Sequence record: PX880103.1
DNA: 64,000 nt
Strand: one strand, 5' to 3'
From: a phage
Position numbers and translations under genes: made by a program. The notes beneath the pieces are model-generated. The model worked only from the letters and a program-made list of their open reading frames with translations. It did not search any database and was not told the origin of the DNA. Shown piece after piece: positions 57,345 to 64,000 of this stretch (position 1 is the stretch's first letter; each line of letters starts with the position of its first letter).

Positions 57345-58259
57345 TTAAGATTTAAGTAAATCAACAATTTTAATTAACTTTTCACGCTCAGATTTAGCTT
57401 TACTACTCAGTCCAGATAGTCTGAAAATTTCATCATCATATTGCTGAATAGAAATATTCAGCTCTTCAATCTGCTTATTAAAATAATCAATTTGTTCAGA
57501 ATGTTTTTCGTTACTACGAAATGGTACAGGTTTTGTAGGCAATTTAGTTAAACTGGATTCATCCGGGCGATAAATTAAAATACAATTTGAACCAATCGGG
57601 CATTTTGCCCCAGATGAATATTCTAATGTTCCAGCTTCTTTTAAAATTTCAAAAGCTAAACAGAGATGATGCCCCATATTAACATAATCTGTAGAGTGAG
57701 CTCTGACGTAATAATCATCTCCACGAGTGCTAAATTTAAAGCATTTAAGGTCTTCTGTATTATTGGTCTTAAAAATCATTTGTTTATCTAGACCTTTAGC
57801 TAATCGAGCGCCTAATGCTAATAATCGTCGTTGATTTTCCCACAAATCCGCAATCATTTGATCGAATGATAATTTCGGCATTAGTCGACCATAAAGGTCA
57901 TATCCTTTATTATAATTGCGAAGGATTTCACTCGCATTAATACGAGACAACGCTCCAATTTTATTAAGGGCTTTCATGATGCGATTAGATAAACTCATTC
58001 CAGACCCATTTGTTCGCTGTAAATGTTTTTCTAATCCAAATCCAATATCAACTTTAAATTTATCTAAAATTTTGGCATGAACATCTCTGTCAATAACATT
58101 CAAATCCAAAGTTGGGTTAAATCTATGAAAAAATTTATCTGGCTCTCCACGACGAAGTACAGTCCATTCATTCATCATTTTTTTATTAACTAAGGATTTA
58201 ATTACTGCATTGACATTATTAATTACTACTGACATATTTTCCTCACTCAATTTTACCAA
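57345..58259 (-). CDS. Paralogue family member D (304 aa), C-terminal coiled coil
   Basis: Contains LALGARLAKGLDKQ; C-terminus QIEELNISIQQYDDEIFRLSGLSSKAKSEREKLIKIVDLLKS. Confidence 0.6.
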   Translation of the reverse strand: MVKLSEENMSVVINNVNAVIKSLVNKKMMNEWTVLRRGEPDKFFHRFNPTLDLNVIDRDVHAKILDKFKVDIGFGLEKHLQRTNGSGMSLSNRIMKALNKIGALSRINASEILRNYNKGYDLYGRLMPKLSFDQMIADLWENQRRLLALGARLAKGLDKQMIFKTNNTEDLKCFKFSTRGDDYYVRAHSTDYVNMGHHLCLAFEILKEAGTLEYSSGAKCPIGSNCILIYRPDESSLTKLPTKPVPFRSNEKHSEQIDYFNKQIEELNISIQQYDDEIFRLSGLSSKAKSEREKLIKIVDLLKS

Positions 58260-59227: not shown

Positions 59228-59255
59228 TTTGTGTTCCTCCGTAGTTGATAGTTGT

Positions 59256-59285
59256 ATAGTACCACAGAGGAACGGTCTTGTAAAC
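59256..59285 (-). promoter_or_regulatory. Early promoter cassette (GTTTAC-N18-TACTAT plus conserved leader)
   Basis: Minus-strand GTTTAC at 59280-59285 and TACTAT at 59256-59261. Confidence 0.65.
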
Positions 59286-59287
59286 AA

Positions 59288-59602
59288 CTAAAAGAAACTT
59301 CTTTCACAATTTTTTCCACTGAACCACGCGCTCACTGCTTTCTTAGTCTCAGGAGCAGTGTTATCCATAAACCATTCAAAAGCAGCCTTTTTATGATTCT
59401 GGAGGGCTTCTCGGGCTTTAATCTGCTCACGGTCTATTAACACTAACATATGAGCCTTTCTTGTCACCAGGGGCTTCTTATGATTTTTTGAATACTCCCA
59501 ATCATTTGTCCATCGCATCGTTGTTGCGAATTGAAGTACAGCTTCTTTAATCTTAGTTTCGTAAATTTCACGAGCCTTTGAGTATAACATCATTACCTCC
59601 AT
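59288..59602 (-). CDS. Hypothetical protein (104 aa)
   Basis: ORF track; its 3' end runs into the promoter cassette. Confidence 0.45.
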   Translation of the reverse strand: MEVMMLYSKAREIYETKIKEAVLQFATTMRWTNDWEYSKNHKKPLVTRKAHMLVLIDREQIKAREALQNHKKAAFEWFMDNTAPETKKAVSAWFSGKNCERSFF

Positions 59603-59691
59603 TTACCAGTTTAATTTTAGTCATCTTTTTGATGGCAGTCCATATAATCTATTTCTGAACTGCCTTTTTGTCATAGAAGTCCTCTTATGAA

Positions 59692-60660
59692 TTATTTCAG
59701 AAGAGTAACCTCAGCAATTTCTTCCCAACCGTTTTTGTCGGTCATAATAAAGTCAGCAAGATAAAGAGCGGTACGCAGTGAAACATTGCGTAAACGGTTA
59801 ACATTGACTTTCATCCATGATAATGCTTTATAAGTTTCTTCATCAGAAAGACCGCGCTTTTGCATCATGTCGGTTGAAAGAATAACATCTTCAACCCTGA
59901 CCATAATTTCTTCATTAGTGTGAACACCCAAATCTAAATAAACTGAGCGGGACACTAATGCTTGTAAATGTGGAGCAAGTTTAGTACCACGGTCTAATTC
60001 GCGGTCAATATCAACGTTTGTGATAAAAACAATTGTTCCTTTAAATTCAAACTCACGATCAATGCCTTTTTCTTCTAAGTAAGAAGATGCAGTGCTCCAG
60101 CAGACTTTACGGGTCTCTCCAGTGTCCAGAGCAGCTTTCAGAAGATTAAGAATGTCCATATCAGAAAAAACATCCACATCATCAATCAAAAGGACAGAAT
60201 TCTCTTCACGATTATTCCAAAGCTGCTCATAAAGACCGATACCAGAGATTTTACCATTAATGCTTTTATACTCAATGTATCCAATATCATTTGCTTTATT
60301 CAAAGCTTTATCTAAAGAATACGTTTTACCAATACCCGCCGCACCAGAGATAATTAATGAACGAATATTTCCGTTAATAATACCATTCGTCATCATTCCC
60401 ATAACATTAAATCTTTTATTAATGCGGGTTTTCATATCTTCATATGATTCTTTAACTTCTTCAACTTTTACACCATCATATGAAATGTCTGATTTATAAA
60501 CCCAAACACCGCGACGTTTACCATCAATTTCAACAAAAACTTTACCGTCTCCTTGTGCATCTACCGGAGCATTATCTGGGAACCATTCGCCTAAGAGTTC
60601 AAAGGTTCCAGAGATTTCTTTACCGAAGTAGATACCCTTATTGATAGTTACAGTTTTCAT
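59692..60660 (-). CDS. P-loop ATPase (322 aa; Walker A GAAGIGKT, Walker B LLIDDVD)
   Basis: ATG at 60660 after leader GGAGAATAAA (MKTVTINKG...); the track N-terminus is the translated cassette. Confidence 0.6.
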   Translation of the reverse strand: MKTVTINKGIYFGKEISGTFELLGEWFPDNAPVDAQGDGKVFVEIDGKRRGVWVYKSDISYDGVKVEEVKESYEDMKTRINKRFNVMGMMTNGIINGNIRSLIISGAAGIGKTYSLDKALNKANDIGYIEYKSINGKISGIGLYEQLWNNREENSVLLIDDVDVFSDMDILNLLKAALDTGETRKVCWSTASSYLEEKGIDREFEFKGTIVFITNVDIDRELDRGTKLAPHLQALVSRSVYLDLGVHTNEEIMVRVEDVILSTDMMQKRGLSDEETYKALSWMKVNVNRLRNVSLRTALYLADFIMTDKNGWEEIAEVTLLK

Positions 60661-60694
60661 TTTATTCTCCAAATCCGTATCAGTTGATAGTTGT

Positions 60695-60724
60695 ATAGTA
60701 CCATAAAGCTTTATGCTTGTAAAC
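60695..60724 (-). promoter_or_regulatory. Early promoter cassette (GTTTAC-N18-TACTAT plus conserved leader) for the ATPase gene
   Basis: Minus-strand GTTTAC at 60719-60724 and TACTAT at 60695-60700. Confidence 0.65.
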
Positions 60725-60754
60725 AACTTTGTGAAAAATTTTTGAAATAAAAAA

Positions 60755-60772
60755 GGGAGCCCGAAGGCTCCC
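60755..60772 (-). terminator. Hairpin plus T-run after the nucleotidyltransferase gene
   Basis: gggagcc-cgaa-ggctccc followed on the minus strand by TTTTTTATTT. Confidence 0.65.
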
Positions 60773-60774
60773 TA

Positions 60775-61788
60775 TCATTTATAATAACTTCGATGGTTTT
60801 CAAGATAGACCTTCTCAAGGAAGTCATCCCAGAAACTCATGTCTACTTTTTGCTGCATACCGTTCTTAGAAGCTTCAGTAGATGCTGCTTCTACTTGATC
60901 GACCACATCTTCCAAAAACTCTTGAACCGTTTTAAATGGATGTTTACCCAACTTCACGTCGAGAATAAATGGAGCATCTTGGAGTGGATAAATCAAGTCG
61001 CCAGTTTTGTAAATTTCCAATAGTTGGAGTCCACCACGACAAGCATGGCTCAGAGCTTTCCAGTCAATACCTTCGTTGGCTTCGGCCTTACGAGCACGTT
61101 CACCATATTCAGCATCTAATTTGTTCAGTGACTGCTTAAGCTCAATAAGAGAAAGCGTTGTCTGATATTTACGACCCAACACAGTGTAGAACGTTTGTGG
61201 GCCTGTTTTCTCATGATTATGGAACACCCATTCACAGAATTCGTTTTCTGGAAGACGATGCTTAATATCTTCAACTTTAGTGCGACGCTGCTTAATAGAA
61301 CCATCTTCTTGGTAATCAACCCATTGCTCAGGGATTTGATTAACTACTTTCAATACATCACGTAATGCAGCCAAACGAGAACCCTTGACACCGTATTTAG
61401 AAGCTTGCTTGCGGACATATCCTAAATATGATTTCATGTTAGTCGTATAAAAACGAGAACGGTTGTCTTGAATAAACTTCCACACATCAGGCAAATCAGA
61501 TTTAACCACTAGTTCAGGTGGAGTGTGAAGCATATCTAATGCTACGGTTTCACCATCTGCTGCTAATTTAAAGAAATATTTAAGACTGTATAGTTCATGG
61601 TCAATATCATCTTTAGTGTTTTTAGATGATGTGTTGTTAGTGTTTTTACTCATGTGCTCTTTGACATTTCCGATAAGAATATCACGAGCAGGAGGAACAA
61701 AAATTTCTTTAAAATCTACATCAGATTCTGGGGTAGAAGTTCCATAAAGATGACTACCAAAATAGCTTTTCATTACTGTTTTCATCAT
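60775..61788 (-). CDS. Nucleotidyltransferase-fold protein (337 aa)
   Basis: N-terminal FGSHLYGTSTPESDVDF fits the GS-x(9-13)-DxD signature of the Pol-beta nucleotidyltransferase superfamily. Confidence 0.55.
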   Translation of the reverse strand: MMKTVMKSYFGSHLYGTSTPESDVDFKEIFVPPARDILIGNVKEHMSKNTNNTSSKNTKDDIDHELYSLKYFFKLAADGETVALDMLHTPPELVVKSDLPDVWKFIQDNRSRFYTTNMKSYLGYVRKQASKYGVKGSRLAALRDVLKVVNQIPEQWVDYQEDGSIKQRRTKVEDIKHRLPENEFCEWVFHNHEKTGPQTFYTVLGRKYQTTLSLIELKQSLNKLDAEYGERARKAEANEGIDWKALSHACRGGLQLLEIYKTGDLIYPLQDAPFILDVKLGKHPFKTVQEFLEDVVDQVEAASTEASKNGMQQKVDMSFWDDFLEKVYLENHRSYYK

Positions 61789-62246
61789 TCAGCCTTATAT
61801 TCAATAACAGGACATACTTTAGCTTTACGAGCTTTTAAAAATTCGACGATAATCGATTTCTTGGGTTGAATAGGAGGTAAACCTTTATACGCTCTATCAA
61901 TATTTTCTACGTGTAAAGCATAATCCTTTTTCCATTTATAATCTTTATATTTTTCATGCAAATGTGCAGGAATAACAAATGAACCGATAATAAGTAAAAC
62001 AACCAAAAGCGCAAGTATAAATGCCGATGGAAGAAGAGTCCATAAACTACCGAAAATAAGCCAACGTTGTAGGCTTTCTGCACAAATAATTGTTAGCCCT
62101 ACGAGTATAGCACATCCAAAAATAGAAACGAAAAATGTAGGAATGGCAATAGACCAAAAATATGCGCATAGTGTCTTAGGTCGTTGCCATTCATCGTTAA
62201 ACAATTTGAATAATTTATAATGCCAAGAGTTTTCATTAATAATCAT
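61785..62246 (-). CDS. Membrane protein (153 aa)
   Basis: At least three hydrophobic helices. Confidence 0.5.
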   Translation of the reverse strand: MIINENSWHYKLFKLFNDEWQRPKTLCAYFWSIAIPTFFVSIFGCAILVGLTIICAESLQRWLIFGSLWTLLPSAFILALLVVLLIIGSFVIPAHLHEKYKDYKWKKDYALHVENIDRAYKGLPPIQPKKSIIVEFLKARKAKVCPVIEYKAE

Positions 62247-62248
62247 AA

Positions 62249-62770
62249 TTATCCTTTCATTGAAGGCGTAACGGTTGTTAAATACTTAATCATAGCTTCA
62301 GCTTCTGATTTTGATAATGAAATTTCTCCATTGTTTTGACGAATAGAAATAAAATCCGGATGACGGTCACCACCAGCTTTTAAAACACACATATAAGTAT
62401 CAGTTTCACCTTCAATATTTGAAATGATTGAAGCAGTTCCACATGAATGCGGTTTTTGATAAATCAATGCAGCTTTTCTTCCGCCATTTGACTGCTCATA
62501 GGCTTTTAATACATCAAGCAAATCAGTTCTTTTATCAATAGCTAAAATGTTATTTTCATCTTCAATGTTAAATCCTTCGGATACTTCATAAAGTGTTACC
62601 CATAAATCACTAATGTCAATAACAGCATTTACTTTTCCACGGCTTTCAAGAGTATGACAAATTTTCTTGATTTCGTCATAACTCATTTTAATAATATCAT
62701 CTCCTTGACTAAGGAAGATGTCATTTTTAAATTCAACACGAATTAAACCGCTTCCACTTGAAATAAACAT
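62249..62770 (-). CDS. Hypothetical protein (173 aa), paralogue of 62777..63322
   Basis: Shared motifs EGFNIEDE / PGFNIESE and C-terminus EAEAMIKYLTTVTPSMKG / DEAIALKTYLDSVIPTMISK. Confidence 0.5.
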   Translation of the reverse strand: MFISSGSGLIRVEFKNDIFLSQGDDIIKMSYDEIKKICHTLESRGKVNAVIDISDLWVTLYEVSEGFNIEDENNILAIDKRTDLLDVLKAYEQSNGGRKAALIYQKPHSCGTASIISNIEGETDTYMCVLKAGGDRHPDFISIRQNNGEISLSKSEAEAMIKYLTTVTPSMKG

Positions 62771-62776
62771 ATTTCC

Positions 62777-63322
62777 TCACTTTGAAATCATAGTTGGAAT
62801 AACAGAATCAAGATAAGTTTTTAGTGCAATAGCTTCGTCTTTGGTAAATGTGACAATATGTGCTCGAAAATCGTCAATTTGACGAATAGTTAAGACATCT
62901 CCATCTTCATAACATTTTGATACGTTTAAAACAGTTTCATCATTCTGATTGCAAGCGTTAGTAATAATAGCATTGCAATTTTTAAACCATTTTAAACTAT
63001 GTTTTCTTTCATTAGAATAATAAAAATATTTAATCTTATCTATAAAACTATCCCAATGGATAACTGATAAGCATATTGACTCGCTTTCAATATTAAATCC
63101 TGGGCATGAAGAATAAAAATGAATTTTATGCTCATCATTAATGCTTACAATTTTATCAGTATAAGGATTTTCAATTTTGGTTAAATGAATGATTTCACTA
63201 GGCGTAAAATACAGCATATCGTCTTCTTGTGTCAAACGATACATATTATTTACTTTTTCTATAGCCAATTCACCAAAAAGTGAACTAACTTCTAATACTA
63301 ATCGTTTCGCCGCTACCGTCAT
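62777..63322 (-). CDS. Hypothetical protein (181 aa), paralogue of 62249..62770
   Basis: See neighbour; ATG with GAGGAG SD. Confidence 0.5.
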   Translation of the reverse strand: MTVAAKRLVLEVSSLFGELAIEKVNNMYRLTQEDDMLYFTPSEIIHLTKIENPYTDKIVSINDEHKIHFYSSCPGFNIESESICLSVIHWDSFIDKIKYFYYSNERKHSLKWFKNCNAIITNACNQNDETVLNVSKCYEDGDVLTIRQIDDFRAHIVTFTKDEAIALKTYLDSVIPTMISK

Positions 63323-63426
63323 TACATACTCCTCTGAATCATATCAATAATGTTGTTCACCAAATTATAAGTAAACATTGGGTAATTATATTGAATCATC
63401 ACATACACAACAAACAAAACTTTCAT
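63322..63426 (-). CDS. Small peptide (34 aa)
   Basis: Below track cutoff; first ORF after the 63455-63484 promoter, GGAG SD; may be a leader peptide. Confidence 0.3.
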   Translation of the reverse strand: MKVLFVVYVMIQYNYPMFTYNLVNNIIDMIQRSM

Positions 63427-63454
63427 TCTCTTCTCCTTGGCAGTTGACAAGATT

Positions 63455-63484
63455 ACTATATCATAACCTTGCCAACTTGTAAAC
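63455..63484 (-). promoter_or_regulatory. Early promoter (GTTTAC-N18-TATAGT)
   Basis: Minus strand GTTTACaagttggcaaggttatgaTATAGT. Confidence 0.6.
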
Positions 63485-63649
63485 CATTAAATGACGTTTT
63501 CAATAAAATTCTGAAGCTTTGTGTGAGCATCAACCATGATTTTCATTTCTTCTTTGGCGAAAGCTGTACCTCTTTCCCGAGAAGAACATTCATAGTCAGA
63601 AACTGCGTTAGCATATTCTTCAATTAGTTTCATTAAAAACATCTGCTTT

Positions 63650-63844
63650 TCAGTTTTCATTATTCCACCTAATCATTTCAAGATATTGAACTAACTTAGC
63701 TTTAGATTTATCCAAATCCTTTTTAGCTGCTTCTATACCGTCGTATGAATATCCTTCACAATGCTCAACTGCTAATTGATATGAATCTATTTCAATATCA
63801 CGTGCTAATTTAATGATTTTTTCAAACTGTTCGCGTGTTAGCAT
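63650..63844 (-). CDS. Hypothetical protein (64 aa)
   Basis: ORF track; ATG confirmed. Confidence 0.4.
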   Translation of the reverse strand: MLTREQFEKIIKLARDIEIDSYQLAVEHCEGYSYDGIEAAKKDLDKSKAKLVQYLEMIRWNNEN

Positions 63845-63846
63845 AC

Positions 63847-64000
63847 TTAAACTCTCGTATTATGATCGATAATTTCATCAAGAAACATATCTAACGCTTC
63901 TAAAGCATTATCAACTTTAGCTTCAAATTCTTCAATACCTGATAAGGCAAAGTTAATGCGCTCCTCATCTGCTTTACGAATTAAAGCTACCAATTCCTTA
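63847..64000 (-). CDS. Hypothetical protein, C-terminal part (5' end outside window)
   Basis: Minus-strand frame open from the window edge to TAA at 63847-63849 (...ALEALDMFLDEIIDHNTRV). Confidence 0.4.
   Translation of the reverse strand, partial: KELVALIRKADEERINFALSGIEEFEAKVDNALEALDMFLDEIIDHNTRV

Follow-up and report, generated by a model that had tools for sequence, protein, structure and literature searches.

What two adjacent and visibly similar genes of a T4-like phage encode, how they are expressed and what their products might bind are the questions raised by positions 62249..63426 of a 64,000-nucleotide (nt) stretch of phage DNA (record PX880103.1; hereafter the window). The first-pass annotation of this DNA, made from its letters alone, described a tandem pair of paralogous open reading frames (ORFs), driven by an early promoter through a 34-codon leader ORF and forming a duplicated accessory module of unknown function. 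The window belongs to a Tequatrovirus, a T4-like phage; its bases 61700-64000 share 98% identity with Escherichia phage DalCa and have matches in 508 phage records, and all genes of its mobD region lie on the minus strand. The two ORFs and the domains assigned to their products of 181 and 173 amino acids (aa) are as follows.

62777..63322, minus: MobD.1 orthologue, 181 aa, predicted three-repeat PUR-like protein
63011..63301, minus: MobD.1 residues 8-104, T4_y05I_N, repeats I+II (predicted intramolecular PUR-type domain)
62789..62998, minus: MobD.1 residues 109-178, T4_y05I_C, repeat III (candidate dimerisation repeat; Pfam E 8.5e-21 and structure model)
62249..62770, minus: MobD.1 paralogue, 173 aa, predicted three-repeat PUR-like protein, not in T4
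62486..62767, minus: paralogue residues 2-95, T4_y05I_N, repeats I+II (Pfam E 4.1e-33 and structure model)
62258..62467, minus: paralogue residues 102-171, T4_y05I_C, repeat III (Pfam and structure model)

Duplication of mobD.1 and variation of the locus

Alignment of the two proteins, which the first-pass annotation had proposed as a check, gave significant similarity from end to end (BLASTP: 46.6 bits, E 1e-11, 30% identity), and the motifs EGFNIEDE and PGFNIESE as well as the C-termini SKSEAEAMIKYLTTVTPSMKG and TKDEAIALKTYLDSVIPTMISK were found as quoted there. Each protein carries both Pfam domains of the y05I family in N-then-C order and above the gathering score. PF24449 (T4_y05I_N, cut-off 24.9) was matched by the 181-aa protein with E 5e-38 (130.1 bits) and by the 173-aa paralogue with E 4.1e-33 (114.4 bits), while PF24448 (T4_y05I_C, cut-off 27) was matched with E 8.5e-21 (74.5 bits) and E 2.1e-23 (82.9 bits), respectively. 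PHROG 1502 was matched by both (E 7e-81 and 8.5e-67). Judged by these alignments, the two ORFs, separated by 6 nt, are almost certainly true paralogues that arose by an old tandem duplication of the T4 mobD.1 gene, in agreement with the initial description of a pair. A family profile search revealed no third y05I copy in the window. The ratio of nonsynonymous to synonymous substitution rates (dN/dS) was 0.09-0.36 for both paralogues across orthologues; both copies are under purifying selection and therefore maintained as coding genes.

By its domain matches, the pair is placed in a catalogued but unstudied Pfam family, y05I, which bears the label 'putative transcription factor'. In the literature, mobD.1 was found in one review table only, searches for y05I or the Pfam accessions returned nothing, and experimental or structural studies of MobD.1 did not turn up. 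When 1.8 billion representatives were searched exhaustively with the family profile, only 22 proteins were recovered, essentially all from T4-like phages; several of these are 69-83-aa proteins consisting of the y05I C-domain alone. Two long proteins with repeated short profile matches look spurious and were set aside. NCBIfam gave no informative match for the pair, and no match to a known defence or counter-defence system was obtained from PADLOC for any of six operon-region proteins. The description 'unknown function' can be sharpened by the predicted fold discussed below.

Synteny comparison across related phages placed the pair in the T4-like mobD cluster between rI and nrdC.11 and, more closely, between mobD.2 and nrdC.11. 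Its initial placement downstream of nrdC was a misreading, as the pair sits upstream of nrdC.11 in the direction of transcription. DNA homology between the window and T4 falls into two blocks, 64000..62752 (93%) and 61789..59242 (97%). The 181-aa ORF is the orthologue of T4 MobD.1 (UniProt-style name y05I), with a DNA segment 93% identical and the same slot after mobD.2, whereas the 173-aa ORF, which encodes both family domains, has no T4 counterpart. Between the homology blocks, the window contains 962 bp (62751..61790) with the paralogue and a membrane-protein gene, whereas T4 contains 808 bp (NC_000866 57257..56450) with the HNH homing-endonuclease gene mobD, a clean cassette swap; the mobD insertion site has been given as nrdC.11/mobD.1 (PMC2988022). 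T4 is the exception here, because only 47 records contain T4-type mobD (95% identity or higher), against 729 records for the MobD.1 family and 434 phage records for the paralogue (80% identity or higher). More than 430 phage records carry the pair in intact form. Sequence comparison indicates that most Tequatroviruses, including the RB14 type, carry the complete set of MobD.1, paralogue and membrane protein, and that in T4 and its closest relatives the homing endonuclease has taken the place of two of them. T4 MobD.1 itself displayed a dN of 0.073-0.084 compared with 0.034-0.043 for other Tequatrovirus orthologues at similar dS, an approximately twofold elevation that may stem from weaker constraint once the paralogue and membrane gene were lost, or simply from a different allele in this single lineage.

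Related phages vary considerably at this locus. JK45 and the Dhakaviruses JS10 and AnYang contain a single y05I gene followed by the membrane gene and nrdC.11, and the IMG/VR contig L011 harbours a mobD homologue between the membrane gene and nrdC.11 with nothing lost. Phage G4507 (L018 2315..2905 versus window 63318..62912) carries an additional 61-aa gene, and up to codon ~137 its MobD.1 belongs to a diverged allele of ~48% protein identity; the flanks are 96-97% identical and the last ~45 MobD.1 codons are common to both. A natural chimera of 179 aa (P0011; L019 3001..3540; Logan contigs L019-L022) joins MobD.1 residues ~1-130 to paralogue residues ~121-173, and in some metagenomic phages it takes the place of the tandem pair ahead of a divergent 157-aa membrane-protein allele. 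Some deposited genomes (NR1, SV76 and TadeuszReichstein) hold frameshifted or fragmented copies: the paralogue is split by a frameshift in NR1 (L002 4252..4774), and both paralogues are broken into several small coding sequences in the SV76 record (L005 1940..3019), where, as in NR1, pseudogenes or sequencing errors are possible. Labels vary as well, with RefSeq naming MobD.1 or MobD.4 'molybdopterin-guanine dinucleotide biosynthesis protein MobD' (e.g. NC_054908, L004 3200..3745, and NC_000866 mobD.4) and a 59-aa JK45 ORF 'helicase loader', all of which look like name-propagation errors from the T4 symbol mobD.

Such a mosaic of allele swaps, chimeras, insertions and homing-endonuclease replacement invites the reading that the paralogues are incidental neighbours: a hyperplastic region would hold a redundant duplicate that has nothing to do with mobD.2, the membrane protein or NrdC.11, and whose fold is as uninformative about mechanism as that of SsgA. 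The broken copies in three genomes, the dispensability of the block in T4 (PMC9825161) and the absence of PADLOC or NCBIfam matches would fit this reading. It seems improbable against the purifying selection on both copies, the integrity of the pair in more than 430 records, and the persistence of the adjacency between a y05I_C-bearing gene and the membrane gene in lineages that lost, or never had, the N-domain.

Predicted fold and the ligand question

Modelled with AlphaFold, each from a different alignment, the two paralogues reached predicted local distance difference test (pLDDT) values of 84.1 and 84.6. Each model consists of three units of 4-5 beta-strands followed by a helix, so that the arrangement of this fold class, at least four antiparallel strands then a helix with two repeats per domain, is present in the predicted structures. 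The top structural matches of the models are the nucleic-acid binders Pur-alpha, Whirly, MRP1/2 and PC4. Repeats I and III also resembled each other weakly in hhalign (E 1.8e-4) and share a Q-x-D...E-hydrophobic helix motif, and repeat II gave no signal against either in the same comparison. Structure prediction, likewise proposed at the outset, thus yielded confident three-repeat PUR/Whirly-like models for both proteins, and a PUR-like fold of the two is highly probable on this basis. The Pfam N-domain is predicted to correspond to repeats I+II ('PC4-like type I') and the C-domain to repeat III ('type II'), which stands as a lone third repeat in the predicted monomers. Pur-alpha is the sole protein described with both PC4-like types; it dimerises through repeat III, and a Pur-alpha/Pur-beta heterodimer through the same repeat has been proposed (PMC7549692). 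Modelling places the pair as additional members of the PC4-like/PUR fold class, outside the Pur-alpha family proper by sequence and surface charge: Pfam PurA was not matched up to E 1 and Pfam Whirly was not matched at all, and searches of the PDB with each protein or the family profile gave no sequence relatives, only chance matches at E 0.5 or above.

The surface of these proteins is peculiar for the class. The y05I proteins have isoelectric points (pI) of 4.2-5.8 and full-length net charges of -3 to -20, and are acidic both overall and per domain. Conserved acidic positions number 11, including the invariant E-x-E of the GFNIE-E motif, compared with two conserved basic positions, both in helices. 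The net charge of the strands is +1 or lower, Asp and Glu are conserved on them, and no conserved Lys or Arg, as expected on the surface of a nucleic-acid binder, was found on any y05I beta-strand. Classical RNA or DNA binding is doubtful because the family is acidic and lacks conserved basic strand residues. These charges computed on modelled strands leave about an even chance that the y05I ligand is something other than nucleic acid, and a host or phage protein or another basic ligand seems a more likely target than free RNA or single-stranded DNA (ssDNA).

The competing view is that of a classical PUR/Whirly function, in which the pair binds single-stranded RNA or DNA (e.g. damaged tRNA or mRNA ends) as RNA-handling cofactors of NrdC.11 or as early regulators of transcription or translation, the latter being what the Pfam label 'putative transcription factor' suggests. 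The best structural matches are indeed nucleic-acid binders, and the phage Whirly-fold protein ChmC binds RNA (PMC11077065). Binding by ChmC requires strand lysines and arginines, mutation of which abolishes it (PMC11077065), whereas the y05I family conserves acidic residues on its strands, is acidic overall and per domain, and matches neither PurA nor Whirly in Pfam. The gene neighbourhood, taken up below, bears on this view in both directions, and on balance it is unlikely, though the strongest of the alternatives considered.

The early operon and its other products

The remaining elements of the transcription unit, all on the minus strand, are listed in the order of transcription.

63455..63484, minus: early (sigma-70 type) promoter GTTTACA-17-TG-TATAGT, equivalent of T4 Pe57954 (consensus score)
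63322..63426, minus: mobD.2 micro-ORF, 34 aa, hydrophobic N-terminus, first cistron (phrog_3515 and T4 orthology)
61785..62246, minus: 153-aa membrane protein gene (phrog_944, E 1.5e-50; hydropathy; synteny)
60775..61788, minus: NrdC.11, RlaP-family nucleotidyltransferase (PF10127), last cistron (Pfam and T4 DNA identity)
60754..60773, minus: intrinsic terminator closing the operon, 8-bp GC-rich stem then TTTTTATTT (hairpin and T-run)

The early promoter named in the first-pass annotation was recovered as the top-scoring site of the region, with TTTACA-17-TATAGT at 63483..63455 agreeing at 10/12 positions and an upstream TG (extended -10). Its sequence is almost invariant in eight related phages, and its predicted start lies 22 nt 5' of the mobD.2 ATG, a distance equal to that between T4 position 57954 and T4 mobD.2, the T4 offset being derived from the window-to-T4 DNA alignment. 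Pe57954 is a recognised T4 early promoter, and the genes downstream of it rise in a dksA mutant (PMC6024815). A region scan found no terminator-like site between the promoter and nrdC.11, and neither late (TATAAATA) nor MotA-type middle promoter patterns occur inside the module; terminators are annotated at the same place after nrdC.11 in DalCa, NR1 and G4507. The cistrons are closely packed, the junctions being, in order, an overlap of 1 nt, gaps of 6 and 2 nt, and an overlap of 4 nt. The single promoter, the lack of internal terminators or of late or middle promoters, and the terminator after nrdC.11 therefore bound a five-gene unit, and by these sequence features the operon comprises the promoter, mobD.2, MobD.1, the paralogue, the membrane protein, NrdC.11 and the terminator, with the pair as the early-transcribed cistrons two and three. 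The 'duplicated accessory module' of the initial description is real as a duplicate and larger as a module.

T4 RegB is an endoribonuclease that cleaves early mRNAs at the core motif GGAG. This motif occurs in the Shine-Dalgarno sequences of mobD.2 (63437..63434) and MobD.1 (63335..63332) on the minus strand, and the paralogue has GAGGAA without it; GGAG alone is insufficient to predict RegB sensitivity (PMC1702504).

The 34-codon ORF, translated as MKVLFVVYVMIQYNYPMFTYNLVNNIIDMIQRSM, had been called a leader, and its stop was said to overlap the start of the first paralogue. The overlap exists: the final A of the mobD.2 TAA is the first A of the ATG of the 181-aa ORF (TAATG, 1 nt). The reading that translation of this ORF controls the expression of the pair has in its favour the promoter-proximal position of the ORF and its good GGAG Shine-Dalgarno 7 nt upstream; the overlap and the location of the MobD.1 Shine-Dalgarno inside its 3' end make translational coupling plausible. 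The ORF is the catalogued T4 gene mobD.2, with its own PHROG (phrog_3515, E 2.8e-22), and its peptide is conserved in amino acids across genera. Citrobacter phage Merlin has a GTTTAC-type promoter of its own followed by the coding sequence for MKSLVVVAYLYVQYNNPLFTRNVIDFIWSQL, which shows synonymous third-position differences from the window. The mobD.2 stop of L010, G4507 and Merlin overlaps the start of another gene and not that of MobD.1. The 5' RNA folded no better than shuffled sequences (z-score +1.06), its search against Rfam gave no match, and no terminator precedes the next gene, on which grounds an attenuator or riboregulator was rejected. Because its peptide is conserved, it precedes varied genes and the 5' RNA is no more structured than shuffled sequence, mobD.2 is best read from sequence as a gene for a small hydrophobic protein that always occupies the first-cistron position, and not as a dedicated regulatory leader of the pair, a role that now appears improbable. 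At most, mobD.2 may be translationally coupled to the gene that follows it.

The membrane protein encoded after the pair contains two long hydrophobic stretches and ends in a basic C-terminal tail of 55 residues (tail pI 9.6). By the positive-inside rule its ends, the tail included, are predicted to be cytoplasmic, and its gene has a dN/dS of 0.04-0.46. In every non-T4 lineage or locus examined, a y05I_C-bearing gene lies directly upstream of the membrane gene with a gap of at most 10 nt or an overlap, and insertions (mobD and other ORFs) fall only between the membrane gene and nrdC.11. Fused y05I_C-membrane proteins, hinted at by the long PHROG 944 profile, were not found among the homologues of the membrane protein. 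Repeat III also stands alone (69-83 aa) in the same slot in Klebsiella T4-like phages and Citrobacter phage Merlin, and is likewise found alone in Moon; natural recombinants such as the chimera and G4507 swap the N-part while repeat III is kept. Since repeat III stands alone, adjoins the membrane gene and is kept in recombinants, it appears to be the core of the system.

NrdC.11 closes the operon, its start overlapping the membrane gene stop by 4 nt. It matches PF10127 with 44.7 bits (E 1.7e-11; cut-off 23), and its DNA is 97% identical to T4 nrdC.11. T4 NrdC.11 has been assigned to RlaP cluster 5 (PMC12776372); enzymes of this family extend damaged RNA 3' ends by one or two nucleotides (PMC12776372, PMC7824862). 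The co-occurrence of y05I, membrane and RlaP genes across several T4-like genera speaks for the nucleic-acid-binding role considered above; in several lineages other genes separate the membrane gene from nrdC.11, and this loosens the tie with RlaP.

Beyond the operon, two further observations concern the flanks. The 344-aa, TTG-start nrdC.10 ORF call (59692..60726, minus) spans an early-type promoter, TTTACA-17-TACTAT with TG, at 60723..60695 after the nrdC.11 terminator; the true nrdC.10 start must therefore lie further downstream, and T4 NrdC.10 is 325 aa long. Upstream of the promoter, the small ORFs 63487..63660, 63650..63844 and 63847..63993 (minus) are the equivalents of mobD.2a, mobD.3 and mobD.4, and match Pfam DUF7438 with E 4e-15, 1.5e-17 and 7e-7, forming another tandem paralogue array; additional DUF7438 copies occur near tk in related contigs.

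A proposed role and its place among known systems

Considering the locus as a whole, the explanation that fits best, by a slight preponderance, is that of retained duplicate PUR-like proteins of an early operon, forming repeat-III dimers tied to the membrane protein and directed at a target other than nucleic acid. In the predicted models, repeats I+II would pack into an intramolecular PUR/Whirly-like domain and leave repeat III as a lone 'type II' repeat. By analogy with Pur-alpha, this repeat could pair with repeat III of another molecule, either of the same protein (homodimer) or of the other paralogue (heterodimer); dimerisation of this kind is somewhat favoured. The repeat-III unit might then work with the membrane protein encoded next downstream, possibly by its basic cytoplasmic tail, although a functional link between the pair and the membrane protein can be put forward only tentatively. 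The more variable N-terminal PUR domain would hold the target. An acidic protein of this type could serve as a scaffold or as a mimic of nucleic acid, in the manner of the SsgA proteins, with the membrane tail as the obvious candidate for a basic partner. Such a role is favoured because the family is acidic and has no conserved basic strand residues, whereas canonical members bind nucleic acid through such residues.

Several points weigh against this proposal. Its structural statements rest on predicted monomers; Foldseek comparison of the models with the PDB gave nothing significant (best E 0.03), and Pfam and PDB searches found no sequence-level link to PUR, Whirly or solved structures. MobD.1 persists in T4 although both the paralogue and the membrane gene are missing there, so that neither partner is obligatory, and in the laboratory T4 tolerates loss of the entire nrdC.11-mobD.3 block (PMC9825161). 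T4-like phages broadly inherit their gene order, so that adjacency is a weaker sign of a functional link here than it would be in bacteria. Binding of RNA and ssDNA is what this fold class is best known for, and the operon ends in an RNA-repair nucleotidyltransferase, both of which favour nucleic-acid binding by the pair.

MobD.1 is one of many T4 early genes without an assigned role, and the fold assignment gives a first testable idea; an architecture like that of Pur-alpha has so far been reported only for the eukaryotic protein. A far bolder and quite unlikely extension is that the MobD.1 family comprises the first prokaryotic-virus proteins with the full Pur-alpha architecture (types I and II), turned into an acidic nucleic-acid mimic or decoy whose repeat-III dimer docks on a small inner-membrane protein, while the variable N-terminal PUR domain traps a host RNA/DNA-targeting factor, e.g. 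an anticodon nuclease or other defence sensor, beside an RlaP RNA-repair enzyme. If that were true, T4 genetics would have missed the module since T4 lost half of it to the mobD homing endonuclease. T4 is in any case the wrong model for the MobD.1/paralogue/membrane-protein module. More soberly, the pair are ordinary, dispensable accessory genes of a hyperplastic region. Since the block is not needed under laboratory conditions and occurs only in T4-like phages, its impact is limited unless some host target or defence-related phenotype comes to light.

Set among known systems, y05I is unusual in its full three-repeat architecture, its acidity and its pairing with a membrane-protein gene. The three-repeat architecture of the models is like that of eukaryotic Pur-alpha (PDB 3K44 for repeats I-II; 5FGO/8CHW for repeat III), whereas y05I has no sequence match to the PUR repeat profile and no conserved basic strand residues. 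SsgA-type proteins share this fold and are not known to bind nucleic acids. The SsgA/SsgB-like proteins of actinomycetes (PDB 3CM1) have no sequence relation to y05I and lack a third repeat, and nothing ties the phage y05I proteins to cell division. The single-repeat PC4-like proteins (Borrelia Pur-alpha 3N8B, PC4 and YdbC) and ChmC are basic RNA or ssDNA binders, whereas y05I is acidic and its gene goes together with one for a membrane protein. ChmC, which has the Whirly fold, is, moreover, a homotetramer of two-repeat domains, unlike y05I.

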